Below, piece after piece: positions 29,221 through 51,179 of a DNA stretch of 64,000 nt. Numbering within the stretch: the stretch's first letter is position 1; every line of letters begins with the position of its first letter. The translations under genes were made by a program, and so were the position numbers. The notes under the pieces were generated by a model. That model was not told the origin of the DNA. It ran no database searches and was given only the letters and a program-made list of their open reading frames with translations. The stretch lies in the NCBI GenBank assembly GCA_963842445.1, contig CAWJHF010000016.1, positions 8,067 through 72,066 of the forward strand. The letters are read 5' to 3'. This stretch comes from an uncultured Verrucomicrobiae bacterium. GTDB lineage: Bacteria; Verrucomicrobiota; Verrucomicrobiia; Limisphaerales; UBA11358.

Positions 29221-29272
29221 ACATGCTCACGCCGCGAAGTTCGCGCTTTTCATCGTTGGAAATCAGGGTTAG
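29221..29272 (+). repeat. direct repeat copy A (left island boundary), homologous to the tRNA-Leu upstream region
   Basis: acatgctcacgccgcgaagttcgcgcttttcatcgttggaaatcagggttag matches 51024-51075 at 48 of 52 positions with no gaps (hand count). Confidence 0.85.
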
Positions 29273-29307
29273 AACTAATGGCCGAGGGGTAGTGGTACGT
29301 TTTGAAA

Positions 29308-29520
29308 TTAGGCAGCGACTGGGTTTGAAGGCGGGGGACTTTCCTCGCTAACCAATAATGCTGGCGTTTCCAAAGCCCATAGAACATCAAATGAACAACG
29401 TTCACATCGCGGCAGCACTTGGCCCTTCAAAAATGAGCGTTTAATAGCGTGAACACAGTGCGCTTTGTAAATCCCAGAGACATCACAGTGTTCACCGCTC
29501 ATTTTAAGTACTGAAATCAT
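29308..29520 (-). CDS. small Cys-rich hypothetical protein
   Basis: MSGEHCDVSGIYKAHCVHAI...GQVLPRCERCSFDVLW has two Cys pairs that resemble a zinc-ribbon. No other support. Confidence 0.3.
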   Translation of the reverse strand: MISVLKMSGEHCDVSGIYKAHCVHAIKRSFLKGQVLPRCERCSFDVLWALETPALLVSEESPPPSNPVAA

Positions 29521-29572
29521 GCCTTTCTTTACGGTCTATGGCCGCAGGCGTCAATGTAATAGAACAAATTTA

Positions 29573-30088
29573 TTAGTCCAACAATTTCACGATTTGTTCC
29601 AAGCTCCAAATGTGGTCTGAAATTCCCGCTTCCATCGCTGGCGTGACGCGCAAGCTTTGATGCACACGGCCAAAATTGTAATACATATAATGCAACGCAA
29701 TCGCAGCTTCGTGATTTTCGACCTTTTTTGAAAAGGCATTCGTTAGGCGCGTAAATCGGCGCATGGACATTCTCATCGTCAGATTTTGCCGCTCCGTGTG
29801 GCTGGTGGAAATGTGTTTGAAATCCGGCATCCCCGAAATCACCGCCCGTTTTGCACCCATGCAGACCGCCGGACTGTAACGCACTTCCCCTTGCGGCTGC
29901 TCAACGCCGTAAATCTTTTGCAGCATCGTATAATCAATGTCCGCGCCAAAAGCATCTTCAACCACCGTCAGATACGCCTTGTGGCCGTCCGTTGTCAGTT
30001 GGACACGGTTTGCCAGCCGTCCGGCCAAATCGTGCATAAAATGATACGCTGCGCCAGCGTCACGGCTGCTGACGAACCAACACGGCAC
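29573..30088 (-). mobile_element. IS1-family transposase, C-terminal two-thirds only (5'-truncated remnant)
   Basis: LANRVQLTTDGHKAYL...STSHTERQNLTMRMSMRRFTRLTNAFSKKVENH...YNFGRVHQSLRVTPAMEAG matches the DDE region of this IS1-like group. The N-terminal HTH and first Asp region are missing. Confidence 0.75.
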
Positions 30089-30093
30089 AAGTT

Positions 30094-30489
30094 TTGTGTC
30101 AGGGTCAAGAGCAACCCGTGGCCGTAGGCGGCGAACGCCGGGGCATCATCGCTTCGGCTTCCTACGAGGCGCGGAAGTTCGGCATCTATACGCCCATGCC
30201 CACGGCACGGGCGCGAAAACTTTGCCCCAAGCTCATCGTGTTGCCCGGTGATTACGAACGCTACGAACAGTTTTCCAACTGGATGTTCGGCTACGCCTAC
30301 GACTTCACACCGGACGTGGAACAAACTTCCATTGACGAAGGCTATTTCGACCTGACGGCCAACCACAAAAAACCGCCGGTTGAAATCGCGCTGACGATTC
30401 GCAAAGCCATCGGACAATCCCTCAAAATCACCGTCAGCGAAGGCATCGCGTCAAACGAGCTCGTCATTCTGCCTTCTTATCTTCAATAG
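30094..30489 (+). pseudogene. dinB: DNA polymerase IV (DinB) internal fragment, truncated at both ends
   Basis: PVAVGGERRGIIASASYEARKFGIYTPMP...SIDEGYFDLT...ITVSEGIASN corresponds to roughly residues 20-150 of DinB. No N-terminal MDxFYAxVE and no little-finger domain. Confidence 0.8.
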
Positions 30490-30562
30490 AATCAAATTGA
30501 CATCGGAGCCAGCGCTGATTACAATGACTCGCCCAAAGTGGGTGGAACATCAACGAAACCGT

Positions 30563-33535
30563 ATGAGAGCGGAGATAGTCTGCATTCTGACAACGCTGGT
30601 GATCTTCAACGCAGTCCTTCCTGCTGTCGCACAAGGGAGCTTTCCGGCTGATGCGGTTTCCGCGCGCCAATCCATTCCGTGGAACGCCGTTGGCGTGGTT
30701 GCAGGCAAACCATCGCAAGGTGATGCGCTGGCAGTATTGGCGTGCGATGATGGCGCGCTACTGCACTGTGCGTTCCAAAGGATGGATGGCCATGCAACCG
30801 CCGCCGGTCTCTGGCTGGCCTCCACAACGACCAATTCGCACGACGAACGATTTCGTCTTGTGGCCACCAGTCTGGCGCGGATGAGCGCGGACCGCTCGCT
30901 TGGAGCGGGCGTCCAGGACGAGATGTCGCTGTGTCCCACTGGAACGGTGCGGGTGATGGATTCCGTGGTGCGTTGGGAGCGGCCCGGCGTGACGGAGGAG
31001 TATTCGGTGAGCGTGGATGGAGTGCGGCAGGATTTTGTCATCGCGCAACGTCTGCCGGGGCAGGGCCATTTGCGGTTGGAGTTGACGCTGTCGGGTGCGC
31101 GGGCGGAAGCCGCCGCGGATGAGGTGAAGATCATCTTGGAGGGTTCGCGCCGCGAACTGGCCTACAGCCGGCTGCGCGCGACGGATGCCTATGGCAGGGA
31201 ACTTTCCGCAAGGATGGAAGTGGTCTCCGCCAATCGCTTTGAGGTATGGGTGGATGACGCGGGCGCTGCCTACCCCGTGCGCATTGACCCGACATTCAGT
31301 GATGCGAATTGGGTCAGTCTGGGTTCGTTGCCGGGCGCCACCAGCACTGTCTTTGCCATGGTTGAAGACAAGAACGCGGGGGTGCTTTACGTCGGCGGAG
31401 GTTTCAGCGTCGTCGGTTCCGCCGTGGTTTCTGGCGTTGCCAAATGGGACGGGACCAACTGGTCAGGTGTCGGGACGGGATTGCCGGGTCTGGTGAGGGC
31501 GCTGGCGGTGGATGGAAAGGGGAATCTCTATGCCGGAGGGGCGTTCACGAATTCGGTCCTGATGATCACCAATGTTGCTAAATGGGATGGAACCAACTGG
31601 TCCGCGTTGGGGACAGGAATGAATGGAACCATCCTGGCCGTGGCGGCGGACGGCTCCGGCAACGTTTACGTCGGTGGTACTTTTACCAACAGCAACATTT
31701 CGGCGTATAACATCGCCCAATGGAACGGGAGCAGTTGGTCAGGAGTCGGTGACTTCAACGGCACAGTCTCCGCTCTGGCCGTGGACGGGAGCGGCAACCT
31801 TTACGCCGGCGGCAGCTTTTCCACCCCCACTTTTTTTGTGGCTCTGTGGGACGGGAGCAGTTGGTCGGCGATGGGGGCGGGGCTGAATAGCTCGGTTCGC
31901 GCTTTGGTGGTGGACGCCTACGGCGATGTTTATGCGGGGGGCGCATTCACCAACGCGGATGGCAATCCGGCCAATCACGTCGCGTATTGGGACGGCATCG
32001 GCTGGTCGGCCTTGGGCGCGGGATTGGGCGGCGCGCCTGCGGCGCTGGCCCTGGACAACGCGGGCAATCTCTATGCCGGCGGCGGGTTCACCACCGCCGG
32101 AGGCTCGCCTGCCAATCACATTGCGGTTTGGAATGGCAGCAGTTGGTCGGCTCTCGATTCGGGAATAGGCACCTCGCTGGTCATTGCGTTGGCCGTGGAT
32201 GCCGGGGGCAATCTCTACGCCGGCGGCACTTTCGGCACGGCGGGCAGCGTCGGAGTTGACAATCTTGCCCGGTGGAACGGGAGCGCATGGTCGGGAATTG
32301 GTTCGGGACCAAACTCAACCGTGTATGCGGTGACCGTTGATCCTTCGGGCAATCTTTATGTCGGAGGCCAGTTCACGTCGGTTGGCGGCATTACGGTCAG
32401 CAACATTGTCGAATGGAATGGCAGCGCCTGGTCGGCGTTAGGCTCCGGCATTCCGGGCTCTCCCCCCACCACGGTTTACGTGCTGACGACGGACAGCGCT
32501 GGGAATCTTTATGCCGGTGGCATTTTCAGCAATGCGGGAGGTGCGAGCGCCAATGATATCGCCAGATGGAACGGGACTAACTGGTCGGCTCTTGGCTCCG
32601 GGATGGGCGGCAGCCTCCCCTACGTTTATGGGTTGATCACGGACGGGGCCGGCGACCTTTACGCCGGAGGTTTTTTTACCACGGCGGGCGGCGTCACGGT
32701 CAACGGCGTTGCGAAATGGAATGGGAGCACGTGGTCGGCTTTGGGCTCGGGCATCAGCGGCGCGAACGCCAACGTGGACGCGTTTGCCTTCGATCACACC
32801 GGGAATCTTTATGCCGGCGGCAGTTTCACCACGGCGGGCGGGGTGCCGGCTAATTCCATTGCCAAATGGAGCGCAAGCACATGGTCCACCCTCGGCCCGG
32901 GATTGGGCACCAACGGAACCTATGTCGGGTCGCTGGTCATGAATTCCGCCGACCATCTTTACGCCGCCGGGCAGTTCACCAATGCCGGCAGCGTGATGGC
33001 CAACTACGTTGCCGAATGGGACGGAAGCAACTGGTCGGCCTTGGGCGCGGGGATGAATTACTACGTTTTTACACTGGCTCTTGATCCGGCGCAGAATCTC
33101 TATGCCGCCGGGCAGTTCACCAACGCCGGAGGCATTTACGCCAGCGGCATAGCCAAATGGGACGGAACCGCCTGGTCGGCCCTGGGTTCGGGGCTGAACA
33201 ACACAGTAATTTCGCTGGCCGCCGATGGAGCCGGTCGTCTTTACGCGGGAGGCGTCTTTACCGCTGCCGGCACCAATGTTTCAGCTTATGTCGCCCAAGC
33301 CAACGTCCTGGACATGATTTCCAAACCGCGCCGCAATCCGGATGGCAGCCTGACGTTTAATCTCCTGACCACGCCCAACACCACCAACCGGGTGCAGGCG
33401 GCGACCAACCTCGCACCGCCGGCAGTCTGGCAACCAATCTACACCAACATTGCTCCAGCCAATGGTGCGTGGCAGTTCACCGACACGAACACCAGCCGTT
33501 ACCCGGCCCGGTTTTATCGCTCTTCTACGCCTTGA
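30563..33535 (+). CDS. large secreted beta-propeller-type repeat protein (~20 repeats of ~55-60 aa)
   Basis: Signal peptide MRAEIVCILTTLVIFNAVLPAVAQG, with alternative starts at 30497 and 30524. The repeat is W[DN]G[ST].WSALG.G.......ALA.D..GNLYAGG.FT.AGG..AN.IA. Confidence 0.8.
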   Translation: MRAEIVCILTTLVIFNAVLPAVAQGSFPADAVSARQSIPWNAVGVVAGKPSQGDALAVLACDDGALLHCAFQRMDGHATAAGLWLASTTTNSHDERFRLVATSLARMSADRSLGAGVQDEMSLCPTGTVRVMDSVVRWERPGVTEEYSVSVDGVRQDFVIAQRLPGQGHLRLELTLSGARAEAAADEVKIILEGSRRELAYSRLRATDAYGRELSARMEVVSANRFEVWVDDAGAAYPVRIDPTFSDANWVSLGSLPGATSTVFAMVEDKNAGVLYVGGGFSVVGSAVVSGVAKWDGTNWSGVGTGLPGLVRALAVDGKGNLYAGGAFTNSVLMITNVAKWDGTNWSALGTGMNGTILAVAADGSGNVYVGGTFTNSNISAYNIAQWNGSSWSGVGDFNGTVSALAVDGSGNLYAGGSFSTPTFFVALWDGSSWSAMGAGLNSSVRALVVDAYGDVYAGGAFTNADGNPANHVAYWDGIGWSALGAGLGGAPAALALDNAGNLYAGGGFTTAGGSPANHIAVWNGSSWSALDSGIGTSLVIALAVDAGGNLYAGGTFGTAGSVGVDNLARWNGSAWSGIGSGPNSTVYAVTVDPSGNLYVGGQFTSVGGITVSNIVEWNGSAWSALGSGIPGSPPTTVYVLTTDSAGNLYAGGIFSNAGGASANDIARWNGTNWSALGSGMGGSLPYVYGLITDGAGDLYAGGFFTTAGGVTVNGVAKWNGSTWSALGSGISGANANVDAFAFDHTGNLYAGGSFTTAGGVPANSIAKWSASTWSTLGPGLGTNGTYVGSLVMNSADHLYAAGQFTNAGSVMANYVAEWDGSNWSALGAGMNYYVFTLALDPAQNLYAAGQFTNAGGIYASGIAKWDGTAWSALGSGLNNTVISLAADGAGRLYAGGVFTAAGTNVSAYVAQANVLDMISKPRRNPDGSLTFNLLTTPNTTNRVQAATNLAPPAVWQPIYTNIAPANGAWQFTDTNTSRYPARFYRSSTP

Positions 33536-33932: not shown

Positions 33933-34214
33933 GTGACGCATCTACGACGCATTCATACTGACCAGACACACTGGTTTTGCGTGTTTCGCTCAGAACAGAC
34001 TGGAGACCATGTGCTTCAAGCCACCTTGCGTGAGGAGGGATGGCCTGACATCGCGATGCGGCTCACCGCCGATGAGATAGCGATGTTTCAAGATCGTCCG
34101 ACAGACTTCGTCACGTTCGCTAAAGAATTCATCGCGTCTCACGATTCGGCGATTTTTCGTCCGAGAAAGATTTCAATTCGCAGCAGTGGGCCGGGTTTTA
34201 TAGAGATTGATTGA
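33933..34214 (+). CDS. hypothetical protein
   Basis: 93-aa ORF with protein-like composition (LTADEIAMFQDRPTDFVTFAKEFIASHDS). No motif recognised. Confidence 0.35.
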   Translation: MTHLRRIHTDQTHWFCVFRSEQTGDHVLQATLREEGWPDIAMRLTADEIAMFQDRPTDFVTFAKEFIASHDSAIFRPRKISIRSSGPGFIEID

Positions 34215-34369
34215 CTAACACATTACGGAGCCAGTGCCGGTTGGCACGCTCCAGGACAAGCCCCGACAGAGTGGCCCGGCTGGCAGCCACACAGGAAGCC
34301 AATTCAAAAATCCAACCTTGCCCGCGACGGCACGACGGATACACTGCTTCAGGTCAGGCATCGTGCGCC

Positions 34370-34648
34370 ATGAGCACTTTTAAGACTCAAGATGGTACGT
34401 GGACCCGCAGAGTGGCTGCTCGCAAGAAGGGCACGTGGCGGACATCCGTTTTGCGGCCGTGGCTCATAGACGAACGATTCCAGCAGGCACGATTCGTCCT
34501 GGTTGGTGGTCCTACAGTTTTGGTTTCGGCGGGCGATTTGCGCCGGGCACTTGACGCCTCCACAGCACCGGGCAGGCTTATCTGTTCGGTTCGCATCGAT
34601 CCTGAGAAAAGCACTATCAATGATCAGCCAGTTCATTTTATGGGCTGA
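34370..34648 (+). CDS. hypothetical protein
   Basis: An internal ATG (MSTFKTQDGTW...) gives a 92-aa product. The upstream part of the tracked ORF looks non-coding. Confidence 0.3.
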   Translation: MSTFKTQDGTWTRRVAARKKGTWRTSVLRPWLIDERFQQARFVLVGGPTVLVSAGDLRRALDASTAPGRLICSVRIDPEKSTINDQPVHFMG

Positions 34649-35135
34649 CTGGATCGCTCGCAGGCTGCTCCGGTCCAATTCGATACTGCGCGACGGCCAT
34701 ATCGGCACCGAACCGCTCACTCACTTGGTGTTGGAACCAGCGGAAGGAAGGTCGGCGTTTGGAATAAAACAGGTGGCTGGTTCGGCTGCGCCGGTAATCC
34801 GATGAGCCAAAGCGGCGGATCGGCATACGAAACCCGGACGCCTGTTCCAGCAGTTCCGCCAGGTCCTGCTCCCGTTTCCGACCCGAAAGGGCATACCAGA
34901 CCTCGACTGGCTCAGCATAGCCAAGCAGGTAATCTATGTGCCAATGCGGTTCGGCCACTGATTCCAGATGGTGATGTATCCGCGCTCGGAGGCCACCGGG
35001 ACCCAACGCACTCCCCACATAAGCGTAAAAGCCAGGAAGGAGGCCGTAGGTTCCCAAGCGCCCGATCTTCAGGCGCTTCATTTGCAAAACCGAGGCAATC
35101 AGGATGTAGGTTCCCCTTTCGTCCGGCAGTTCCAT
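34638..35135 (-). CDS. DUF123 / GIY-YIG-superfamily (Uri-like) endonuclease domain protein
   Basis: GTYILI...GFYAYVGSALGPGGLRARIHHHL....HWHIDYLL is the DUF123 signature. Confidence 0.65.
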   Translation of the reverse strand: MELPDERGTYILIASVLQMKRLKIGRLGTYGLLPGFYAYVGSALGPGGLRARIHHHLESVAEPHWHIDYLLGYAEPVEVWYALSGRKREQDLAELLEQASGFRMPIRRFGSSDYRRSRTSHLFYSKRRPSFRWFQHQVSERFGADMAVAQYRIGPEQPASDPVSP

Positions 35136-35164
35136 AGCGTGAAGCGTATCGGCAGATTGAGTCG

Positions 35165-37090: not shown

Positions 37091-37157
37091 CGCTACGGGT
37101 GCGGTGGGATTTGATTACGATTAACAGACAAACCAACAACGAAACGAAAAACAAACT

Positions 37158-41476: not shown

Positions 41477-41516
41477 ATAATCAGAGTTATCACAAATCGC
41501 GATGGCTGACAATAGA

Positions 41517-41603: not shown

Positions 41604-41608
41604 GGATT

Positions 41609-42721
41609 TCACTGTTCCTGCCGTTTCAGTTCAATCTCGACCATTTCGCAGTTGTCATCGAAGCCGGCATTCTGCAGACCCGGTGTGAAGGTGAGATTCA
41701 TCACCCGGCCATTCTCCCGAAACAGTTCCGGATGCAAGTAGGCACAATACACCAGCTCCACACGTTTCCCCTGACGATATTCGGGCACTTCGATGCGCGC
41801 GAGCGGCGGACTCCAAGGGCCATAAGGCGTATCCGCAACATGGAACCGAATCTCCCGCGGGTGATCGAAGTCGCTCGACGAAGCCATGACATACTTTGCC
41901 AGATACGGATTCCAAGCAACGGAGACTTGACCGGGGACGTTTTTGACCAGAAACGTTGCGGCCGCTTGCCGAGACGAGAATTTCGGACCAGCACCCGTGT
42001 AGAACTCGTAGGCATCGGGGTCCTCGATTTTCTCCGGGCGCACCCGGGCCAGAGCGACGCCCTGCTTCCCTTTGTTTTCCTTGATCTCGTATAGATAAAT
42101 CCACCCGTCCGCCTCAAGAACTTGAGCCGCTCCAACTGGAAAACGCCAATCCCCGTGCGGACGAAGCCGCTCGTATGGGCCGAGCGCAACCTTTGCCCGG
42201 CCGAGGCCGGAACCGACGCCGCGAAAATCCCATTGTCCCTTCCCAAAAATCTCCATCAGCGTATAAAAAAGGTAGTATTGACCGTTCACGTGGATTCCGC
42301 CCAGCGCCCAAATTCCATGGCGCTTCGCAGTTTCGTCCGGGAAATACGCAAATGGCGAGACGGCATCACCATTGCTGGACACGAGATAAGTGAAGGCCGG
42401 CGGATAACTTCTGGCATTCTCCCCAAGAAAGGCGATGGAGCAGGATACGGCTCCTCCGGCGAAGTGCGGAGTCCCATCAGCGAACCGCGAGCCTTTGAAG
42501 GTGTCGCCGAAAACCCAGATCGCCCCGCCCGGGACCGCGAATGACTGTCCGCCATCCTGGGAAACAACTGAAGCCCGGGCGTGCGACTCGTTCCAAAGCG
42601 AGCCGAGGAAATTGGTTTGGACAATCTCAAAAGTCCCGCCCGCCTGCTTTTCCGTCGGCATGGAGGTGGAACATCCCGCAACGATGACTATCAGACCAAG
42701 TGCGATGAAAAGTTGTTTCAT
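41609..42721 (-). CDS. lipoprotein, DUF4185-like / glycoside-hydrolase-like beta-propeller
   Basis: Lipobox MKQLFIALGLIVIVAGC (ATG 42721). The motifs IWVFGDTF and GGIHVNGQYYLFY resemble DUF4185. Confidence 0.5.
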   Translation of the reverse strand: MKQLFIALGLIVIVAGCSTSMPTEKQAGGTFEIVQTNFLGSLWNESHARASVVSQDGGQSFAVPGGAIWVFGDTFKGSRFADGTPHFAGGAVSCSIAFLGENARSYPPAFTYLVSSNGDAVSPFAYFPDETAKRHGIWALGGIHVNGQYYLFYTLMEIFGKGQWDFRGVGSGLGRAKVALGPYERLRPHGDWRFPVGAAQVLEADGWIYLYEIKENKGKQGVALARVRPEKIEDPDAYEFYTGAGPKFSSRQAAATFLVKNVPGQVSVAWNPYLAKYVMASSSDFDHPREIRFHVADTPYGPWSPPLARIEVPEYRQGKRVELVYCAYLHPELFRENGRVMNLTFTPGLQNAGFDDNCEMVEIELKRQEQ

Positions 42722-42765
42722 AATTCCCCTTCTTGTCGCGCCGAAATCGGATGAAGGCGGATGAA

Positions 42766-42815
42766 GGCGCGGTCGCCTGTCCCGTCGTAGCCAAGCGAAG
42801 ATGGAAGAATGGCGG
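42766..42815. repeat. REP-like element type 2, copy 2
   Basis: ggcgcggtcgcctgtcccgtcgtagccaagcgaagatggaagaatggcgg, in the hsdS-lipoprotein spacer. Confidence 0.45.
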
Positions 42816-42878
42816 ATTTCCTCTCCGCCTCGAACGGGGAGAGGATGAAAGGTGAGGTGTCGAATTGACTGGCGGTAA

Positions 42879-44075
42879 TCATAATTCACCTCGAAATGCC
42901 CGATCCAAAATCGCTGGCAGCAAGGCGTCCAGTTTGGCGGCGGTTTCGGCTTGCAGGCGCGTCAGCGCGTCCACCTCCGCCTGCAACGCGTCCAGCTCGG
43001 CCACGATCCGGCGCTGCTCGGCGAGCGGAGGCGTTGGAATTTCCAAATCACGAATATCGCCAAGTGAAATGTTTGGGCGTGCCGTTTCAACTTTTCCACC
43101 GTGAATTGTATCTTGCGCAATTGGGCTAAGAAGAAAGTGAACGAGGAAATCTGGCACCAACTTTTCTTTGTCCGGGCTAATCACGCCGACGGCTTGGTTG
43201 ACGTTTGCATCGCCCAAATCTCCGGGCACAGCGCACGCTCGTCCGATAGACGCGCCGACGAGATTTATCAGAACGTCATCTTTACGCAATTGGCAGCGCG
43301 ACAATTTTTCATGGAAGCCTTGCGGGATGTGAATAGCGTTGCGCGGGTCAAGGCTGCCCCACAGGACATTTTCGCTTCGGATGAAAAGCGGACCTGTATC
43401 TTGGTAAGTGAATCCTTGCCATTCTGGTGATTCGCCCTTCGTGACGCGACTCGACAAATCTTCAAGCCGTGAAGCGCCAAAATCCTTCGCAGCAGAAATA
43501 AAGAATGTGTTGCGTCCGGCGCTACGAAGCGCCTCGGCTTCTTCGGCGGCTTGGTGGCGGAGGGTGCGGGCCTCGTGGATTTGGGCGGCCAGGGCCTCAA
43601 TCCGCGCCACCACCCGCCGCTGCTCCGCCAACGGCGGCAACGGAATTTCGCAAGCGAGAAAAATTTTCGGCCTGACAGCGGCATAGCCAGTCGTGCCTTT
43701 CGCCTCCGCGTCCAACTGCTCTTGTAGAAAGTTCGCGTCGAAGATGGCTTTGAGCCAACGCCGATCAAGCTTGTCCTCACGAATATCGAACAGGAAGAAG
43801 TGGTTTGTGCAAAGTGCGCCTTCACCTTCCGGCGGAACGAAACCAATCGCGCCTTTCTTGCCCCAGATTTCGGACAGGATAACTTGCCCGGCTTTTGCAA
43901 GCTGATGGCGTTTCATCTTGAGCATCGCGCCGTCCGTTGGAGCATCAAGCACAACTCCTTTGCCGTAGAGTTTTACCGAGAGCTTCCGGTATTCTCGCGG
44001 TTCAGGTGCTTCGATGTAATCGGTGTAGTGCGTGAGCACTTCGCCCAACTTCACGGTTGGCCATTGCTTGCTCAT
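42879..44075 (-). CDS. hsdS: type I restriction-modification specificity subunit
   Basis: Two target-recognition halves, each followed by a conserved helix (LPPLAEQRRVVARIEAL... and PPLAEQRRIVAELDAL...). The ATG at 44075 overlaps the hsdM stop (ATGA). Confidence 0.9.
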   Translation of the reverse strand: MSKQWPTVKLGEVLTHYTDYIEAPEPREYRKLSVKLYGKGVVLDAPTDGAMLKMKRHQLAKAGQVILSEIWGKKGAIGFVPPEGEGALCTNHFFLFDIREDKLDRRWLKAIFDANFLQEQLDAEAKGTTGYAAVRPKIFLACEIPLPPLAEQRRVVARIEALAAQIHEARTLRHQAAEEAEALRSAGRNTFFISAAKDFGASRLEDLSSRVTKGESPEWQGFTYQDTGPLFIRSENVLWGSLDPRNAIHIPQGFHEKLSRCQLRKDDVLINLVGASIGRACAVPGDLGDANVNQAVGVISPDKEKLVPDFLVHFLLSPIAQDTIHGGKVETARPNISLGDIRDLEIPTPPLAEQRRIVAELDALQAEVDALTRLQAETAAKLDALLPAILDRAFRGEL

Positions 44076-45652
44076 GCCTGCTTTGCCAAAAGTTTCTGGA
44101 TGTTGCCCATGATTTCCGCGATGCGCTGCTCTTTCTTCAGGATTTCGGCGGCGAGTTGCGCGGGCGGCAGGTGCGTGATGTCTTCCTTGGCGCGCGGGTT
44201 CTTGCGGTCGAGATTGCATCCGTTCGCCAGCAACTCGGCGGCGGGCACCACCCAGGCCCGGTCACTTTCCTTTCGGTTATTCCACCATTGGATGCAATCG
44301 GCGAATTCCTCAAACTGGATGGGTGCGGTTTTGGTGTAATTCTTCCGGCCTTCGGGCAGCGGTTGTTCGTAATACCAGACTTCGCGCGTCGGGCCGGAGC
44401 GGTCGAAGAACAGCAGGTTCGTCGGGATGCTGGTGTAGGGCGCAAACACGCCGTTCGGCAGCCGGACGATGGTGTGCAGGTTAAATTCTTTCAGCAATTC
44501 CTCCTTGATGCGGGCGCAAACGCCATCGCCGAACAACGTGCCATTGGGAACGACCACGGCGGCCCTTGCATAGGTAGGGACGCTGCGCTGCGGCGTCCGG
44601 TCATCGCAGCGCGATGACCCTACCTTTTTCAGCTTCCGCATGATTAACTGGAGGAACAGCAGCGCCGTTTCCGCCGTTTGTTTGTCTTCGGGGAAATTGC
44701 CTTGGATGCCTTTCTCCTCCTCGCCGCCGAAAGGCGGGTTGGTGAGGATCACGTCCACGCGGTCGCGCTCGCCGATGTCCGTCAGCTTGAAGCGGAGCGA
44801 ATTGCCGGGATCAATCTGCGGCGCGTCGAGGCCGTGCAACAACAGGTTCATCTGGCAGAGCAGATACGGCAGCGTCTTGGGTTCGCAGCCAAAAAGAGAT
44901 TTTTCCTGCAAGACCTTGCGGTCAGCCACCGTCTTAACTTGTTTTGACAAGTGATTAAACGCTTCAACGAGGAAGCCGCCTGTGCCGCACGCCGGATCGA
45001 GCACGGTCTCGCCTAAGCGCGGGTCGGTGACGGCGACCATGAGGCGCACGACGGCGCGTGGGGTGTAAAACTCGCCGGAATCGCCCGCCGCATCGCGCAT
45101 CTCGCGGAGCATGGATTCGTAGAGCGCACCCAGCGTCTGCAGCTCGCTGCTGGAGGTGAAATGAATGCCGGCAAGCTTATTGATGACATCGCGCAACAGG
45201 TAGCCGCTGACCATGCGGTTCTGCACTCCCTTGAACACGGTGGCAATCACGTCCCGCCGATCGTCGCCATTGGAACTGGTGAGCGTGCGCAGGTAACGGA
45301 ACAGGCCTGCGCCACGCTTGCCGTCCGGGCGCGTGGTCTCCTCGTTGTTGATGAAGGCGAGCAATTCGTCGCCGGTGATGCCGTCGGACTTGGCGGCCCA
45401 ATCGCGCCAGCGATAGGGCGGTTCGATGGCCGGCTTGAACTTTTTGGCGGCGAGCTTGGCCTCGCCCTCGCGCTGAATTTCCAGGTCGTCCAGAAATTTC
45501 AGGAACATGATCCATGTGAGCATCGGCAACCGGTCAAGGTCGCCATTCAGCCCCTTGTCCTTTCTCATGATGTCGCGCGCAGATTTCAGGAGCGCCCCGA
45601 GTGATTGGGCGGTGGTAGGAGAAGCCGGAACGAGCTTAGGATTCGGCGCCAT
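44072..45652 (-). CDS. hsdM: type I restriction-modification N6-adenine DNA methyltransferase subunit, with an 18-aa in-frame palindromic-element insertion
   Basis: HsdM N-domain (LDRLPMLTWIMFLKFLDD), motif I DPACGTGGF and motif IV NPPFGG. The start is set at MAPNPK (ATG 45652). Confidence 0.9.
   Translation of the reverse strand: MAPNPKLVPASPTTAQSLGALLKSARDIMRKDKGLNGDLDRLPMLTWIMFLKFLDDLEIQREGEAKLAAKKFKPAIEPPYRWRDWAAKSDGITGDELLAFINNEETTRPDGKRGAGLFRYLRTLTSSNGDDRRDVIATVFKGVQNRMVSGYLLRDVINKLAGIHFTSSSELQTLGALYESMLREMRDAAGDSGEFYTPRAVVRLMVAVTDPRLGETVLDPACGTGGFLVEAFNHLSKQVKTVADRKVLQEKSLFGCEPKTLPYLLCQMNLLLHGLDAPQIDPGNSLRFKLTDIGERDRVDVILTNPPFGGEEEKGIQGNFPEDKQTAETALLFLQLIMRKLKKVGSSRCDDRTPQRSVPTYARAAVVVPNGTLFGDGVCARIKEELLKEFNLHTIVRLPNGVFAPYTSIPTNLLFFDRSGPTREVWYYEQPLPEGRKNYTKTAPIQFEEFADCIQWWNNRKESDRAWVVPAAELLANGCNLDRKNPRAKEDITHLPPAQLAAEILKKEQRIAEIMGNIQKLLAKQA
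44573..44624. repeat. REP-like structured palindromic element type 1, copy C (inside the hsdM coding sequence)
   Basis: ggtagggacgctgcgctgcggcgtccggtcatcgcagcgcgatgaccctacc belongs to the same family as 61174-61225 and 62499-62549. In hsdM it is translated as VGSSRCDDRTPQRSVPT. Confidence 0.8.
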
Positions 45653-45848
45653 GAGATTTGGTACGGTATGGAACCGGTGTTTCGCGCAACGCAGCGGCCT
45701 CCGTGACGGAAATCCACACGGCTTTGCCATCCCGCCAGACGGCCAGCGGACGGCCGCGCCGCTGATGGTCGGCAACGACTTTGGCCACGGCATCCGCCAG
45801 TGCCTGTATCGCCTTTTGTGTCAGAGAGGATTCGGTTCGTTTTTTCAT
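45636..45848 (-). CDS. small hypothetical protein (70 aa), possible partner of the zeta-like ATPase
   Basis: MKKRTESSLTQKAIQALADAVAKVVADHQRRGRPLAVWRDGKAVWI... Its ATG overlaps the ATPase stop (ATGA), and its 3' end overlaps the hsdM start by 17 nt. Confidence 0.45.
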   Translation of the reverse strand: MKKRTESSLTQKAIQALADAVAKVVADHQRRGRPLAVWRDGKAVWISVTEAAALRETPVPYRTKSHGAES

Positions 45849-46430
45849 GGTGCAAACCGCCGTCGCAATTGTTCGTAAAGCGCGGCATCGCCAATCGTAG
45901 TGTGGCCCGCTTCGTCTTTGAAGATTAAACGCGGCGTGTCGGACGAGTTGTCGAAGAAATGCAATGTGTCGAGCCACGGGCGGTAAAGCGTGAAAAGATT
46001 GCCCACCGTGCGGCCAAATCGCCGCCGGACATCGCGCTCCGGGACGTTGTGTCCGCCGCTCTCGACGCGATCGCGAATGCGCAGCAAGGCCAGGTCGGGA
46101 CTGGGAATCCACAGATAGAACATGTGCAGCCGGAAGCCGGCCTTTTTCGCGCCGCGCAGCAACGGCACATAGGAGCGACCCGACAAAAATGGTTTCAAAG
46201 GCGAAATCGGTTCGCGCTGCCGTGAATTCCGCGATGCGCTCCAGAACGGCGCGCCCGACGCGCAACATGCCCGCGTCTGGATCGAAGGGCGAATAGGCGC
46301 GGGCCAGCAAATCTGGATTGATGAAATTGCGGCAGTTGGCGTAGAGCGGCAGGAACTCCGTGGCAAACGTGGTTTTGCCTGCGCCGTTCGGGCCGGCGAT
46401 GACATAGCAGTTGGCAAACTTACGCGGCAT
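45845..46430 (-). pseudogene. zeta-toxin-like / COG4185-type P-loop ATPase, split by a +1 frameshift in a homopolymer
   Basis: Frame A carries MPRKFANCYVIAGPNGAGKTTF...TDFAFET. Frame B carries LSGRSYVPLL...GGHNVPERDVRRRF...FFDNS. The frames join if one base is removed from the A5 run at 46185-46189. Confidence 0.7.
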
Positions 46431-46506
46431 ACAGCAGCGTTTGCAGTTGGTTCACGGCGTTGCGGAGCTGGTCTGCGCCGCCGAATTTGCCGATGATTTC
46501 ATTCAC
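46420..46506 (-). pseudogene. hsdR 3'-tail remnant 2 (..VNEIIGKFGGADQLRNAVNQLQTLLYAA*)
   Basis: It begins directly after the Fic stop. Its terminal codons overlap the ATPase ATG. It contains the 50-nt conserved core. Confidence 0.7.
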
Positions 46507-46513
46507 GATTTGC

Positions 46514-47632
46514 TCATTTGATTTTAGCCTTTGGCTTTCGACCTTTGGCGGTTCCGTTATTACCCTCTTTATTACCCTCTTTCAAGGGTAATACCCTCTT
46601 TTGCCATTTCGCACCCGGGCCGCGGCCGAGACATTCGACGTGGCCGGCAGCCTTCAGGTCGCGCAACAAAAGACGAATCATGTCGCGGCTGACGCCGGGG
46701 CAGAGCCGCTCAAGGTCGGTGATGCCGAATTCGCCGGCAAGGTTTTCAATGGCGTGCTCGACCAGTTCGGTTTTCGCGCCGCGCGGCGATTTGAGCTGGC
46801 CGACGCGCTGCTCAAATTCCTTACAGGCTTGCGTGAGGATGAAGAGCAGGAAATTCATCGCCGGCCAAGGATCATGTTTGCTTTCGTGCCAGCGCTGGGA
46901 ACTCTGTTCCAGGACTTCGTAATACCGTTCCTTGTTTTCCTCGATGAGGCGTTCCAGGCTGATGTAGCGTCCGGCTTCAATGCCGCAGTGATAGCACGCC
47001 AGCAGAAAGAGCAGACGCGAGACGCGGCCATTACCATCGCGAAAGGGGTGGATGCAGAGAAAATCCAGATTCAACGCCGCCGTCAGGACGAGTGGATGAA
47101 CCCATCTTTCGCGCCAGCCACGCTCCCACAGTTCAACCATTTCCGCCATCGCCCGGGGTGTTTGTTTTGCCGGAACGGATTTGAAACGGACGCGGCTGCG
47201 GCCATCGGCATAGGTCTGGATAATGTCCACATCTTTTTCTTTGTAACGACCGGCGTCCCAGACCTGGCCTTGGCAGAGTTTGTGGAGCCGCTTGATGGTG
47301 GTTTCAGCGATTGGCAGTTTTGCGCCGGATTCGTGGATGAGTTTCAATGCGTCCCGATAACCGCGCACTTCCTCCTCGTCGCGGTCGCGCAAAGCGGGTT
47401 TACCGAAAATGAGCGTAGCGACGCGGGATTTGTCCACTTCCACGCCTTCGATGCGGTTTGATGAAATAGCGCTTTCAATCAAGGCGTGCTCGCGCAGCAC
47501 CTTGAGCTTTTGCGGTGACTGGCGGGTGAACAACTCTTGTTTTCCGCGCGCCTCGGCCAGGTCGGTCAAATACCACGTCGTCCGCGTCGGCAACGCGGCT
47601 GGTTCGGCGGCGAGTTGGCGGAGGGTCATCAT
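46514..47632 (-). CDS. Fic-family protein (AMPylase-type) with a C-terminal winged-helix-like domain
   Basis: Canonical Fic motif HPFRDGNGRVSR. N-terminal Fic-N-like helices. Confidence 0.9.
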   Translation of the reverse strand: MMTLRQLAAEPAALPTRTTWYLTDLAEARGKQELFTRQSPQKLKVLREHALIESAISSNRIEGVEVDKSRVATLIFGKPALRDRDEEEVRGYRDALKLIHESGAKLPIAETTIKRLHKLCQGQVWDAGRYKEKDVDIIQTYADGRSRVRFKSVPAKQTPRAMAEMVELWERGWRERWVHPLVLTAALNLDFLCIHPFRDGNGRVSRLLFLLACYHCGIEAGRYISLERLIEENKERYYEVLEQSSQRWHESKHDPWPAMNFLLFILTQACKEFEQRVGQLKSPRGAKTELVEHAIENLAGEFGITDLERLCPGVSRDMIRLLLRDLKAAGHVECLGRGPGAKWQKRVLPLKEGNKEGNNGTAKGRKPKAKIK

Positions 47633-47635
47633 GGG

Positions 47636-47743
47636 TCAAGCGGAATAGAGCAGCGATTGGAGTTGGTTGACGGCGTTGCGGAGCTGGTCCGTGCCGCCGA
47701 ATTTACCGATGATTTCGTTTACGTTACTGAGAGATCGCGTCAT
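47636..47743 (-). pseudogene. hsdR 3'-tail remnant 3, preserved as a 35-aa mini-ORF
   Basis: MTRSLSNVNEIIGKFGGTDQLRNAVNQLQSLLYSA*. Its ATG overlaps the cupin gene stop (ATGA), and its stop lies 3 nt before the Fic ATG. Confidence 0.7.
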
Positions 47744-48114
47744 TTGACAGGACTCCTGCTTTCTTCAACCGATGACGGCCACCGGACGGTGATGACAACC
47801 GCTTTGGTGAGAGCTTCCCACCTGTGTTCTCGTTTGTCCTCCCAGACGACGAAGTTTCCGGGAGACCGCAAAACAAAAGTATCGGTTTTCCTACTGGAAC
47901 GGATTTGCACGAGAAACTCTCCGGACAAAAGTAACGTAATGGTTTTCTTTCCAGGCTGCGATTTCCAATCGCCGGATTCACCAGTTTCATGCACACCCCA
48001 TTTGATTTCGATATCGTCAGTCGCTCTCAATGAACGTTTCTTCACAAAGTGGCCGACAATCCAACCACGTGTGGGCTGACCACAGACTACTGCGTTTCCA
48101 AACTCTGGGCGCAT
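47740..48114 (-). CDS. cupin-like small protein
   Basis: PTRGWIVGHFV...DIEIKWGVH..G......TLLLSGEF....VVWEDKREHRWEALTKAVVITVRWPS resembles small single-domain cupins I have seen. Weak. Confidence 0.4.
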   Translation of the reverse strand: MRPEFGNAVVCGQPTRGWIVGHFVKKRSLRATDDIEIKWGVHETGESGDWKSQPGKKTITLLLSGEFLVQIRSSRKTDTFVLRSPGNFVVWEDKREHRWEALTKAVVITVRWPSSVEESRSPVK

Positions 48115-48115
48115 A

Positions 48116-48340
48116 CTATCGTGGGTCCCTCTGTTTTATCGGCTGTGAAGTTGTTCTCGGATTCTCGTATCCTTGGCGTATTGTTTCCAACCATCTGTCG
48201 CCTCCTCGGAGGCTTCGCCCGCCGGACGAAACAAAGAAGTCGATCCCTCCCAGAAACGATTTGTTTAGCTGCTGTTGCAACCAGAGCGCAATCGGAGCTT
48301 CCTCATGCACATGCGAAATAAACACCAAGGGCTTACTCAT
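48116..48340 (-). CDS. TIR-like domain N-terminal fragment (74 aa)
   Basis: KPLVFISHVHEEAPIALWLQQQLNKSFLGGIDFFVSS...GGDRWLETIRQ looks like the first strand, helix and strand of bacterial TIR domains. The ORF ends before the region where the catalytic Glu would lie. Confidence 0.4.
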   Translation of the reverse strand: MSKPLVFISHVHEEAPIALWLQQQLNKSFLGGIDFFVSSGGRSLRGGDRWLETIRQGYENPRTTSQPIKQRDPR

Positions 48341-48346
48341 ATCATA

Positions 48347-50725
48347 TCAGGTTGCATACAGCAGCATTTGAAGTTTGTTCACGGCGTTGCGGAGCTGGTC
48401 CGTGCCGCCGAATTTGCCGACGATTTCGTTGACGTTGCCGTGGAATGAAATCGGCGGGACTTTCAGCACATCGGGCAGGGTGAATTGGAGTTCGCCGTCG
48501 GTGGCGTATTTCTCCAGCAGGTCTTTCAGGATTTCCTGGGCTTCCAAGCTGAAGTAGCCGAAGAAAGCCGATTGCTGTCTCTTAAAGCGGTCGGCGCGCT
48601 GGCGGCGGGTGACCACGGGCGCGTTGAAGGCGAGGTGGCACAGCAGGTCGAATGGGTCGGCGTCCGGTTTGCCCACCTGCGCGGCGACTTGCTGGAAATC
48701 AATCCCGCGCTCGGCAAGCTGCTGGATGATGTCGGCGCGCTGGCCGGCGTCGGCCCAGCGGGCGCGCAAATCCTCCGGGCTGGCGCAGAGCGTCCGCACC
48801 TTCTCGGCGGTGTAGTCGGTGAGCTTGACGACGCGGAGTTGTTTGCCGTCGGAATCAAGCTCGTGGACCAGTTCGGCGGCAATTTCGACCTGTCCGCCGT
48901 CGAAGTAGTACTTTCGGCGTTCGGACGGTGGACCGTCCACGATGACGGGCGGTTGGACTTCTTCCTGAAGCTTGCCGTCGTCATCCTCGGTTTCCTCCGG
49001 CGTGATGACTTCGGTTTCTTTCACCTTGCCGTATTCGTCAATTTCCTCCTGCGTGGCGAACGCCGGATCACCGTCGAAGGTTGGGTCGGCGAAGTTGCGC
49101 GTGGCCGTGCCGGTGTAGTCGAGGATGTTGAACCAGAGCTTGCCGTAGTCGTCGCGCACGCGCGTGCCGCGCCCGATGATTTGCTTGAACTCGACCATCG
49201 AGTTGACAAGGCGCACGAGCACGACGTTGCGGCAGGTGGGCGCGTCGAGGCCGGTGGTGAGCAGTTGCGAGGTGGTCAGGATGACGGGCGTGCGCGTCTC
49301 CACGTCCTGAAACCGCTGCATGTGGCCGCGCCCGATGTCGCCTTCGTCGGCGGTGACGCGGCAGACGTAATCGGGGAATTGCTGGACGAGGTCGGTGTTC
49401 AGATTGTTGAGCGCGGTGCGCATCTCGGATGCGTGTTCCTGGTCCACGCAAAAGACGATGGTCTTGGCGAAGCGGTCGTTTTTTTTGAGGAAGTCGGTCA
49501 AGTGTTTCGCGATGATCTCCGTGCGCTTCAGTAACGCCACTTTTCGCTCGAAATCTGCCGTGGTGTATTCCCCGTCAGGGATGCGGCGACCGTAACGGTC
49601 GAGGTCGTCTTTGCTCGGGCGCCAGCCGGCAGCATCCCATTGTGTGATGATGCGGTGGACGCGATATGGCGCGAGGAAACCGTCGTCAATGCCCTGTTTG
49701 AGGCTGTAGGTGTAAATCGGGTTGCCGAAGTAGAGATAGGTGTCCTTGTTGTCCTGGCGCAACGGCGTGGCGGTCATGCCGAGTTGATAGGCGGGCTCAA
49801 AGTATTCGAGGATTTCGCGCCAGTTGGAATCTTCCTTGGCGCTACCGCGGTGGCACTCGTCCACGATGATGAGGTCGAAGAAGTCAGGCGCGAATTCTTT
49901 GTAAAGACCGGGACGACGTTCGTCCTTGGCGATGGATTGATAGGTGGCGAAATACATCTCACGGCTGAACACGGCGTTACCGCCCTCAATCTTGTGCCGG
50001 GCGTCCCCGAATGGTGCGAAGATTTTGTCCTTGGGGTCGTCCACGAGAAAGTTGCGGTCGGCGAGATACAGAATGCGTGGTTTTCTTTGGGGCTCGTTCT
50101 TCCGATTCCATTTCGAGGACCAAAGTTTCCAGCAAATTTGAAAGGCGACATCCGTCTTGCCCGTGCCGGTAGCCATCGTCAGCAACACCCGCTTCCTGCC
50201 TTGCAGAATGGCTTGCACGGCGCGGTCAATCGCGATGCACTGATAATAACGCGGTTCCCTCCCGGTAGTCAGATTGGCCGAAGTCAGCAGGCGTTGTGCG
50301 GCGGTGTCGTCCGTAAGTTTTTCCCCTGCACGAAGCCGTGACCAGAGTTCGGCCGGCGCCGGAAAGCTTCCAATCACCCGTTCTTTGCCGGTGAGGAAAT
50401 CAAACTCGACGATACCCTGGCCGTTGGTGGCATAGGCGAATTTCAGGCCGAGGATTTGGGCGTATTCCTTGGCCTGTTGCAAGCCATCCGCTGCTTTCTT
50501 GTATTGCGCCTTGGCTTCGACTACTGCCAAGGTGAAGTCGCGCGTATAGCGCAACAGGAAATCGGCGCGTTTGCCTTTGCGGCGTTCGGCCCGACTGCCA
50601 CGAACCACGATGCGTCCGGCGGTGAAATAGCGTTGCTCGGCGATGGAATGCGGGTCGTTGTCCCACCCGGCAGCTTGAAGCTTCGGCACAACGAATTTGC
50701 GGCATGTATCGGCTTCGGTTGACAT
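48347..50725 (-). CDS. hsdR: type I restriction enzyme R subunit (EcoAI/EcoEI-like, with an EcoEI_R_C-type tail)
   Basis: N-terminal nuclease region (ADFLL...VVEAK), helicase motifs MATGTGKT and DECHR, and the C-terminal tail LKVPPISFHGNVNEIVGKFGGTDQLRNAVNKLQMLLY. Confidence 0.92.
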   Translation of the reverse strand: MSTEADTCRKFVVPKLQAAGWDNDPHSIAEQRYFTAGRIVVRGSRAERRKGKRADFLLRYTRDFTLAVVEAKAQYKKAADGLQQAKEYAQILGLKFAYATNGQGIVEFDFLTGKERVIGSFPAPAELWSRLRAGEKLTDDTAAQRLLTSANLTTGREPRYYQCIAIDRAVQAILQGRKRVLLTMATGTGKTDVAFQICWKLWSSKWNRKNEPQRKPRILYLADRNFLVDDPKDKIFAPFGDARHKIEGGNAVFSREMYFATYQSIAKDERRPGLYKEFAPDFFDLIIVDECHRGSAKEDSNWREILEYFEPAYQLGMTATPLRQDNKDTYLYFGNPIYTYSLKQGIDDGFLAPYRVHRIITQWDAAGWRPSKDDLDRYGRRIPDGEYTTADFERKVALLKRTEIIAKHLTDFLKKNDRFAKTIVFCVDQEHASEMRTALNNLNTDLVQQFPDYVCRVTADEGDIGRGHMQRFQDVETRTPVILTTSQLLTTGLDAPTCRNVVLVRLVNSMVEFKQIIGRGTRVRDDYGKLWFNILDYTGTATRNFADPTFDGDPAFATQEEIDEYGKVKETEVITPEETEDDDGKLQEEVQPPVIVDGPPSERRKYYFDGGQVEIAAELVHELDSDGKQLRVVKLTDYTAEKVRTLCASPEDLRARWADAGQRADIIQQLAERGIDFQQVAAQVGKPDADPFDLLCHLAFNAPVVTRRQRADRFKRQQSAFFGYFSLEAQEILKDLLEKYATDGELQFTLPDVLKVPPISFHGNVNEIVGKFGGTDQLRNAVNKLQMLLYAT

Positions 50726-51023
50726 TCGTGATCTGGTCCCAGATCGATTCCCCGACCAAGCAGATTCAACAGCATCCTAAGCCGCGGCGGATTTTAGGCA
50801 ATGGCAAAACTTTGTGCAGAAAAGGCTTTTGCGAAGGGCGCGTCGCCGTTTTTTGGCGGCAGCATGGCAACAAGATCAAAGCGGTGTTGCAATTCCCCGA
50901 AACGCTCCGCTGAATCTCCGAACGGAAACATCACTCCCGTCGCGGAGTTCAATACACCAGCAACAATAACAGACCGGGACTTTCAGCGTCACTTGCTGGA
51001 ATTCCGGCAGTTTTGGAAACGTG

Positions 51024-51075
51024 ACATGCCCACGCCGCGAAGTTCGCGCTTTTCTTCGTTGGGAATCAGGATTAG
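51024..51075 (+). repeat. direct repeat copy B (right island boundary), 16 nt upstream of tRNA-Leu
   Basis: acatgcccacgccgcgaagttcgcgcttttcttcgttgggaatcaggattag. Both copies contain the palindrome CGCGAAGTTCGCG. Confidence 0.85.
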
Positions 51076-51091
51076 CGTTTGCCCACGAAGC

Positions 51092-51179
51092 GCCGGTGTG
51101 GCGAAATGGCAGACGCACAGGACTTAAAATCCTGGGACCATAAAAAGTCGTGTGAGTTCGAGTCTCACCACCGGCACCA
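51092..51179 (+). tRNA. tRNA-Leu (anticodon UAA), class II with long variable arm, CCA encoded
   Basis: Hand fold: acceptor GCCGGTG/CACCGGC, D arm GCG/CGC, anticodon stem CAGGA/TCCTG with loop CTTAAAA, 17-nt variable arm, T arm GTGAG-TTCGAGT-CTCAC, discriminator A, then CCA. Confidence 0.9.

Follow-up and report, generated by a model that had tools for sequence, protein, structure and literature searches.

The window analysed here is a stretch of 64,000 nucleotides (C16:8067-C16:72066) in the 3.77-Mb assembly of an uncultured Limisphaerales bacterium. It contains the assembly's sole gene for the tRNA-Leu(UAA) isoacceptor, which ARAGORN places at 51092–51179 on the plus strand. A plus-strand gene for a 1378-aa repeat surface protein (23128–27264), which in relatives forms the conserved flank to the left of tRNA-Leu, is separated from the tRNA by a variable block of 23.7 kb (27265–50967). 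On the right, SDR, GH63-like and DUF4140/4139 genes follow at 51349–56741 (plus strand). Two copies of a 52-nt repeat (family D15), both on the plus strand, agree at 48 of 52 positions in an ungapped alignment: copy A (29221–29272) inside the block and copy B (51024–51075) 16 nt upstream of the tRNA gene. The original prediction had described this repeat and the intact tRNA gene next to copy B; both are confirmed, and a search of the whole assembly finds the 52-mer at these two places only, the next best match having an E value of about 0.8.

The gene content of the block matches what was previously noted, with an IS remnant, a dinB fragment, restriction-modification (R-M) genes, a P-loop ATPase gene, a Fic gene and a stub of TIR-like type. 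At its left end is a PMT_2/TPR membrane glycosyltransferase-like gene (27292–28944, minus strand; Pfam) that duplicates a gene elsewhere in the genome; it is 90.8% identical in nucleotide sequence to G000:C9:260610-262278, and its family numbers more than 20 paralogues in each genome. To the right of copy A, a transposase-like remnant (29573–30088, minus strand) weakly matches IS1 and IS6 families (Pfam DDE_Tnp_IS1, 25.4 bits; NCBIfam IS6, E 0.004). It is followed by an N-terminal fragment of DNA polymerase IV (dinB; approximately residues 30–150; 30094–30489, plus strand), 87.9% identical in nucleotides to the genome's own dinB at C2:231320, and by a gene for a 1012-aa beta-propeller repeat protein (Rax2/Reg_prop-like; 30497–33535, plus strand), 70–75% identical to sequences at other loci in G106 and G110. 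A 145-aa ORF of no assigned family and a DUF123 gene (34211–35135) are 93–95% identical in nucleotides to G082:C7 and G135:C28 and represent a recently exchanged module. A B12-type radical SAM gene with an 89-aa ORF ahead of it, a remnant of an hsdR tail (38313–40159, minus strand), is 96% identical in nucleotides to G164:C1 and 93% to G044:C1. Beyond it are a thioredoxin-like (ResA/TlpA) gene and a DUF4185 lipoprotein gene (40922–42889, minus strand).

The right part of the block holds a complete type I R-M system (42879–50725, minus strand). A full-length hsdR (48347–50725) lies together with hsdM (44072–45793) and hsdS (42879–44219), as identified with Pfam and PADLOC (REase_I 1e-218, covering profile positions 10–800 of 807; MTase_I 7e-194; Specificity_I). 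Inserted in this system are genes for a P-loop ATPase (45636–46430) and a Fic protein (46514–47632; PADLOC SoFic, 4e-33) and a TIR-like/cupin-like stub (47740–48340); hsdS-hsdM-hsdR occurs without inserts in G050. Modules of the island are 93–96% identical to other loci in other genomes of the genus, while the flanking genes are 81–88% identical. When elements at this tRNA in other genomes were compared by tblastx, the only genes they had in common with the island were Fic and TPR/PMT paralogues.

The extent of the island was drawn from relatives. At least six of them (G045, G077, G044, G042, L105 and L141) have an empty site with the same flanking genes; there the surface-protein gene, 81–85% identical in nucleotides, ends 170–200 nt before tRNA-Leu (1.5 kb in G042). 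Homology to G077 continues up to 27265 and resumes at 50968; homology to L105 continues up to 27262 and resumes at 51040. The order of the right-flank genes is kept in L105 and G044, with 86–88% nucleotide identity in L105. Because the surface-protein gene lies near tRNA-Leu in these relatives, the block is taken to be 27265–50967, including the TPR/PMT gene. Its left edge lies right after the surface-protein stop codon, 2 kb to the left of copy A. The region proposed to be an island of 21.8 kb between the repeats is indeed absent from relatives, but it does not begin at copy A, and the gene adjoining tRNA-Leu in the empty sites is the surface-protein gene. The composition of 27–51 kb is typical of the genome (GC 0.56–0.59 compared with a genome mean of 0.568; tetranucleotide distance in the 30th–83rd percentile), and we rejected compositional foreignness, which had been suggested as a sign to look for. 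The window contains no integrase, as had been stated: a six-frame scan of the genome for PF00589 yields none there.

The repeat spans −68 to −17 of tRNA-Leu and consists of upstream DNA only, with no tRNA bases. Copy B lies within a genus-conserved region, orthologous upstream of tRNA-Leu(UAA) in 22 aligned species, and copy A breaks off within the conserved TAGCGTTT block. Of the other 49 tRNA genes in the genome, not one carries the two conserved blocks together: TAGCGTT precedes none of them, and TTC[GA]CGC precedes a single one, tRNA-Val, within 80 nt. The repeat is not, as the original prediction had feared, a multi-copy motif preceding many tRNA genes. The palindrome CGCGAAGTTCGCG occurs in copies A and B and nowhere else in the genome (0.34 occurrences expected by chance). 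It was considered as a conserved protein-binding site and rejected, as conservation across the 22 species is limited to its right half, TTC(G/A)CGC. Each 52-mer is a copy of the upstream (promoter) unit that belongs to the single tRNA-Leu(UAA) gene, and the two have diverged.

We then asked what flanks each copy. Bases just past copy A had been likened to a tRNA-Leu acceptor and D-arm. ARAGORN and Rfam detect no tRNA remnant after copy A, local alignment of these bases to the tRNA 5′ half is no better than that of shuffled sequences (p=0.36), and the DNA from 29288 on (29288–29640) is 79% identical to a non-tRNA chromosomal locus in two relatives (G164:C4 and G077:C16). The likeness is due to chance, and the remnant was rejected. 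Elsewhere in the window, no tRNA fragment of 12 nt or longer was found beyond chance expectation; the displaced fragment proposed to have decayed at the far end was not found in the window.

Directly to the left of each copy is a remnant of the same small mobile-element gene, termed ORFx. Before copy A, 29084–29220 (plus strand) corresponds to the 3′ end and terminator of the gene; it matches the terminator region of ORFx in G057, G127, G097, G063 and others at 76–95% identity, and contains the motif ATTAAACAAGGTTAAGG, which occurs once in the genome. Before copy B, 50968–51023 (minus strand) corresponds to approximately residues 77–94 (tblastn 87.5% over 16 aa; blastn 86.5% over 52 nt to the G016 element). 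The two remnants do not overlap, and the parent gene is continuous in G057 and G016. Because the copies follow different remnants of one gene, the duplicated unit must once have been longer than 52 nt, approximately 450 nt or more. ORF98 of the G016 contig is in the wrong frame and was discarded, the real gene being ORFx on the opposite strand. An origin of the promoter core from ORFx codons 1–18 (about 39% identity by eye) was unconvincing, and we make no such claim. The remnant junction at copy B is shared with the empty-site relatives G077, L141 and G049, and copy B therefore looks like the inherited promoter type, not an element-borne promoter as had been proposed.

The same tRNA gene is occupied in many congeners. 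Among the loci inspected, tyrosine integrases abut the 5′ end of tRNA-Leu, with element DNA upstream, in at least nine genomes (G016, G038, G035, G052, G006, G080, G071, L112 and L142). Direct repeats of tRNA bases 1–38 bound islands of 12.8 kb in G031, 24.1 kb in G071 and 15.5 kb in G088; displaced copies of the promoter plus 5′ half are found in G084, G127, G051, G001 and G059; and a displaced 5′ fragment of tRNA-Leu(UAA) is present in at least 17 of 81 genomes. In the genome studied here, 5′ fragments of 37–39 nt lie upstream of tRNA-Met, tRNA-Ser and tRNA-Gly, giving three 5′-half cases at other tRNAs compared with eight classical 3′ cases. The island of G088, with Wadjet and Fic genes, resembles that of the window in lacking an integrase and in having a promoter of native type beside the tRNA. 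G051 was considered as a second case with two promoter copies and rejected, as its two contigs are one locus assembled twice, occupied and empty. Related soil Verrucomicrobia take up mobile DNA again and again at the spot upstream of tRNA-Leu, which in this genus is a hot spot for tyrosine-integrase elements whose crossover lies in the anticodon loop. The mechanism originally put forward, in which an element bringing its own promoter and 5′ segment integrates into the 5′ part of the tRNA gene, occurs in the genus and at three other tRNAs of this genome, but its marks are absent from the window locus.

Genomic islands placed in tRNA genes by tyrosine integrases have been defined in the Islander work (PMC4383910). 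Like these, the window island adjoins an intact tRNA gene at one end, is absent from relatives that keep the flanks, carries mosaic cargo including defence genes, and has a direct repeat of target-locus DNA near its far end. Unlike these, it has neither an integrase nor a displaced tRNA fragment in the same orientation, its repeat is limited to −68 to −17, and the boundary drawn from relatives is 2 kb past that repeat. Elements recombining with the 5′ part of tRNA genes (‘reversed target orientation’) are much less frequent than 3′ integration (PMC6563490, PMC8371274); the examples cited in these sources include Zhao and Williams 2002 and the pTN3-like integrases of Thermococcales. The congeners and the three other tRNAs here conform to this type: the element is upstream of the tRNA, its integrase directly at the 5′ end; element DNA takes the place of the upstream region; and the repeat comprises tRNA bases 1–38, to the anticodon loop. 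In contrast, the window locus keeps none of these marks; no integrase abuts its tRNA, the promoter is of the native type, and the repeat ends 17 nt before the tRNA. As in defence islands or hot spots between core genes, cargo at this position varies across relatives (type I R-M and SoFic-like Fic here, Wadjet in G088, a SMODS gene in G031) and modules are exchanged within the genus, but much of the cargo here is unrelated to defence: the propeller, radical SAM, thioredoxin and DUF4185 genes and gene fragments. Overall, the locus is a familiar sort of island in decay, an unremarkable though well-documented relic.

How did the second unit come to lie inside the block? We favour, with a probability of about 0.5, the reading that copy A is a relic stranded in a decayed, accreted island and copy B the inherited unit. 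Copy B would be the working unit and copy A a truncated one, predicted to be inactive, with 23.7 kb accumulated between the surface-protein gene and copy B. Elements of this genus enter 5′ of the tRNA, and the former upstream unit, together with tRNA bases 1–38, is displaced to the far end. One or more such insertions, or the import of a ready-built island from a sister lineage through the conserved flanks, may have stranded copy A; later loss would have taken away the integrase together with the 38-nt tRNA fragment and bases −16 to −1. Recombination would then have added the type I R-M system with its Fic, ATPase and TIR-like inserts and the radical SAM gene, as well as stray second copies of the genome's own TPR/PMT and dinB genes. 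By our estimate, the odds that a stray unit would happen to land no more than 25 kb upstream of its partner and in the same orientation are about 0.3%. Several observations run against a stranded relic: the window has no integrase and no tRNA fragment elsewhere, composition gives no hint of a foreign origin, and the block lacking in relatives begins 2 kb to the left of copy A. The junction shared with G077, L141 and G049 suggests that the tRNA-adjacent unit is the inherited one, the opposite of what simple 5′-half integration predicts.

Copy A lies among stray second copies of chromosomal genes with 88–91% identity, and so could be another imported fragment. A possible though less probable account is that tRNA-Leu saw no integrase event in this lineage, and that homologous or illegitimate recombination brought in the 23.7 kb, upstream of the resident unit, from a sister lineage approximately 10% diverged, a piece of whose tRNA-Leu locus came along. 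Consistent with such a passenger, both ends of the insertion (27265 and 50967) are outside the repeat, the copy B junction is of the inherited type, the k-mer profile is genome-typical, and the left 3 kb are a patchwork of the genome's own second copies (TPR/PMT 90.8%, tRNA unit 92%, dinB 87.9%). However, these three reside at separate loci in the genome, so that one donor segment does not explain them. A TPR/PMT-like gene does adjoin tRNA-Leu in G049, but at just 48% identity and in a family of more than 20 copies. The donor would also need the same two-unit structure, or else position and orientation coincide by chance.

Rather unlikely, in our estimate, is a third idea, that the tRNA-Leu(UAA) promoter unit is itself a mobile-element property, descended from a small Rep/integrase element. 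If true, it would explain the ORFx remnants beside the unit in many species. The unit would ride in the attachment region of promoter-bearing islands, copies A and B would be two products of one event, and recombination within the promoter unit would let islands lacking their own integrase pass from one species to another.

As it stands today, the pair of repeats does not function as an att site. That the copies act as attL and attR, or recombine homologously, so that the 21.8-kb segment still excises with an integrase from elsewhere is improbable: the genome has more than 20 tyrosine recombinases, some beside tRNA 5′ ends, and the repeats are direct and 92% identical, but they lack any of the anticodon-loop crossover region used by congeners, and their edges match differential deletions, not a core site. 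Four mismatches in 52 nt are consistent with no recent homogenisation by recombination, and the predicted product (TPR/PMT, hybrid unit and tRNA) is seen in no relative. Least probable is a generic promoter or REP-type motif, a chance match or an assembly artefact uninformative about the island; the genome is metagenome-assembled and REP-like palindromes exist in the window (families D12 and D16), but the paucity of copies and of either block at other tRNA genes and the orthology in 22 species argue against it, and a 52-nt repeat with four mismatches would not fool an assembler.

The locus serves as a worked example of how relatives correct island boundaries drawn from a repeat. More broadly, the setting holds moderate interest: 5′-half integration at tRNA genes, already described but rare in bacteria according to the literature, is common in this uncultured Limisphaerales (Verrucomicrobia subdivision 3) genus. 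Such insertions swap the promoter of an essential single-copy tRNA gene, raising the question of how its expression stays intact.

The 52-nt direct repeat holds up: copies A (29221-29272) and B (51024-51075) align without gaps and differ at 4 of 52 positions. They are the only copies found by BLAST in the whole assembly under study (G000; 3.77 Mb, 25 contigs), in which the window occupies C16:8067-72066. The sole tRNA detected in the window by ARAGORN, tRNA-Leu(UAA) at 51092-51179, begins 16 nt past copy B and is the only tRNA-Leu(UAA) gene in the assembly. A search with this tRNA and its upstream region covered 81 genomes of the genus and gave matches in 73; copy B can be aligned to the DNA upstream of tRNA-Leu(UAA) in 22 species. 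Two blocks are conserved across these species: AA.TTC.CGCTTT, at approximately -56 to -44, and TAGCGTTT, at approximately -21 to -14. The left half of the palindrome in the repeat, proposed earlier as a protein-binding site, varies freely among them, so the motif is not conserved as a palindrome. The conserved blocks are almost absent before the other 49 tRNA genes of G000: TAGCGTT occurs within 35 nt upstream of none of the 49, and TTC[GA]CGC within 80 nt upstream of one (tRNA-Val). The 52-mer is therefore the specific upstream unit of tRNA-Leu(UAA), presumably its promoter, and no general motif. Copy A terminates at TTAG, inside the second block, and thus lacks a complete upstream unit.

Both copies are bordered by remnants of ORFx, a small mobile-element gene. 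Left of copy B, 16 codons (50978-51025, minus strand) encode a stretch with 87.5% identity to ORFx residues 77-92. Left of copy A, a 137-nt stretch (29084-29220) corresponds to the ORFx 3' end, its terminator hairpin and the motif ATTAAACAAGGTTAAGG, which occurs once in the genome. Because the pieces left of A and B both belong to one uninterrupted gene in G057, the 52-mer is the residue of a longer duplicated unit; comparison with G051 matches its first ~20 bases to ORFx codons 19-25. Copies A and B are the shared leftovers of a unit consisting of ORFx and the promoter, after differing internal deletions. ORFx remnants adjoin the tRNA-Leu upstream unit at both copies in the window and in G077, L141, G049, G051 and G127. 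To the right of copy A, the DNA from 29288 onward matches, with 79% identity, a locus in G164 and G077 that is not a tRNA gene, which explains away the bases that the original prediction had likened to a tRNA. These bases do not stand out from shuffled sequence (p=0.36), and neither a tRNA nor any other Rfam family is detectable beside copy A with ARAGORN and Rfam.

Comparison with relatives defines the variable block. The flanking genes are kept without the island in six relatives (G045, G077, L141, G044, L105 and G042). The order in G045, G077 and L141 is the gene for the 1378-aa surface protein, tRNA-Leu and the DUF4139 gene; in G044 and L105 this order is kept and the SDR and GH63 genes are present too, as in the window. 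The surface-protein gene ends 170-200 nt from the tRNA in empty-site relatives and 1.5 kb from it in G042, where a 1.4-kb gene is inserted. Window homology breaks at 27265 and restarts at 50968 in G077, and breaks at 27262 and restarts at 51040 in L105. The variable block (27265-50967) is therefore 23.7 kb long and includes copy A and the TPR/PMT gene, a membrane glycosyltransferase-like gene to its left. Its start lies 2 kb further left than copy A, where the island edge had been placed. A check for compositional deviation showed the block to be typical of the genome. Window positions 1-27000 are more deviant than the island (GC 0.49-0.54 versus 0.568 for the genome; tetranucleotide distance in the 92nd-99th percentile). 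Several island modules have counterparts with 93-96% identity elsewhere in the genus, at unrelated loci: for the radical SAM gene in G164 and G044, for Fic in G044 and G037, and for the DUF123 module in G082 and G135. The flanking genes, in contrast, reach no more than 81-88% identity with those of the same genomes. This difference points to recent exchange of the modules within the genus.

The predicted gene content is borne out: a weak transposase remnant, an N-terminal fragment of dinB, restriction-modification (R-M), Fic and a TIR-like stub. The type I R-M system is complete; between hsdM and hsdR it is interrupted by inserted genes for a SoFic-like Fic and a P-loop ATPase and by the TIR-like stub. 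Further genes encode a beta-propeller protein, DUF123, an RRM protein, a B12-type radical SAM protein, a thioredoxin-like protein and DUF4185. The last 30 codons of hsdR (NVNEIIGKFGG.DQLRNAVN.LQ.LLY..*) are present four times, at 39875-39964, 46420-46509, 47636-47725 and 48347-48436; three copies, in the R-M operon, share at least 86% nucleotide identity, and the one at 39875-39964 has 69% identity in the 90-nt register. Each directly precedes a different gene (TIR-like/cupin stub, Fic, P-loop ATPase or radical SAM), a pattern that resembles stacked displaced modules at a conserved gene end. Fic directly follows hsdR in G044, and G050 has hsdS-hsdM-hsdR without inserts. A GC-rich palindromic element of 30-53 nt occurs at 44572-44624, 61173-61225 and 62520-62549, one copy inside the hsdM reading frame.

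Among relatives, the 5' side of tRNA-Leu(UAA) is an integration hot spot. In G016, the closest relative by the SDR gene, a tyrosine integrase begins 82 nt from the tRNA 5' end and reads away from it, followed by an HTH regulator, a rolling-circle Rep (ORF2-G2P) and ORFx. The small integrative element at L029 (G016:C154, 5138-9090) and L102 (G057:C18) comprises the integrase, HTH regulator, a 197-aa ORF, the Rep and the ~108-aa ORFx. Related or unrelated integrases adjoin the tRNA 5' end in G038, G035, G052, G006, G080, G071, L112 and L142, and in integrase-abutted genomes element DNA stands in place of the native upstream unit. In at least 12 genomes, tRNA bases 1-38, up to the anticodon loop, recur exactly at a second site. 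Where both copies share a contig, the fragment lies upstream on the same strand; the distance is 12.8 kb in G031, 15.5 kb in G088 and 24.1 kb in G071, which has the integrase at the tRNA. The native unit is displaced together with bases 1-38 in G084, G127, G051, G001 and G059. The nearest analogue of the window is the G088 island, which is integrase-less, carries Wadjet, HNH, Fic and kinase genes and has a native-type unit at the tRNA. Its cargo (L074, G088:C204, 2830-18331) comprises Wadjet JetA/C/D, HNH, DUF2779, Fic and a polyvalent-type kinase; that of G031 (L071, G031:C27, 3722-16521) comprises a SMODS nucleotidyltransferase, an Ada-like methyltransferase and a 2137-aa protein.

Other tRNA genes of G000 have similar surroundings. 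Fragments of 37-39 nt, exact or near-exact 5' copies, lie 3-10 kb upstream of tRNA-Met, tRNA-Ser(GCU) and tRNA-Gly(UCC) (C4:318898-323306, C7:159081-168965 and C9:97106-102817), in two tandem copies for tRNA-Met. Integrases adjoin the 5' ends of tRNA-Met and tRNA-Ser(GCU), and also that of tRNA-Phe (C3:171690). Eight tRNAs have a classical downstream 3' fragment. At C7:95710-95784, ARAGORN predicts a tRNA whose anticodon, UUA, would decode the stop codon UAA. This tRNA adjoins a paralogue of the window's transposase-like ORF and so might be a suppressor carried by a mobile element.

Considering its position and orientation and the genus-wide 5'-side mechanism, copy A is most likely of local origin. 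We estimate a probability of about 0.5 that it is the relic of a 5'-side insertion at tRNA-Leu. DNA would have inserted between an upstream unit and tRNA-Leu. This would have happened in the present lineage, or else in a sister lineage that later donated the whole variable region by way of the conserved flanks; the integrase and tRNA fragment would then have been lost, and more pieces accreted. Three observations speak against one simple event and hold the estimate at this level. The ORFx deletion junction of copy B is common to the empty-site relatives G077, L141 and G049, the block begins left of copy A, and copy A sits amid further stray duplicates of chromosomal genes. The intact dinB of this genome, on C2, is 87.9% identical to the dinB fragment; the TPR/PMT gene, which comes from a family of more than 20 copies, has its closest paralogue, at 90.8% identity, on C9. 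This paralogue lies 290 nt from tRNA-Leu(UAG), with a tRNA-Gly 3' fragment between them (C9:260610-262634). The three observations make it conceivable, if rather doubtful, that copy A is a passenger fragment. The odds are low that A and B form a live excision pair: the edges of the 52-mer are deletion and rearrangement breakpoints and no recombinase core. As the original prediction stated, no integrase survives in the window (PF00589, intact or broken). An artefact or a generic, multi-copy tRNA promoter motif likewise has low odds, with two genome copies and the 49 other upstream regions checked.

Recombination at the 5'-distal side of tRNA genes is much rarer than at the 3' side, and element sequence drives tRNA expression after it (PMC6563490, citing Zhao and Williams 2002; PMC8371274). 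The Islander filters accommodate a 5' fragment located upstream (PMC4383910). The mechanism of integration into the 5' half is already known. Unlike an Islander-type island, the window locus lacks two defining features, the tRNA fragment and the integrase; "decayed island at a tRNA hot spot" describes it best.
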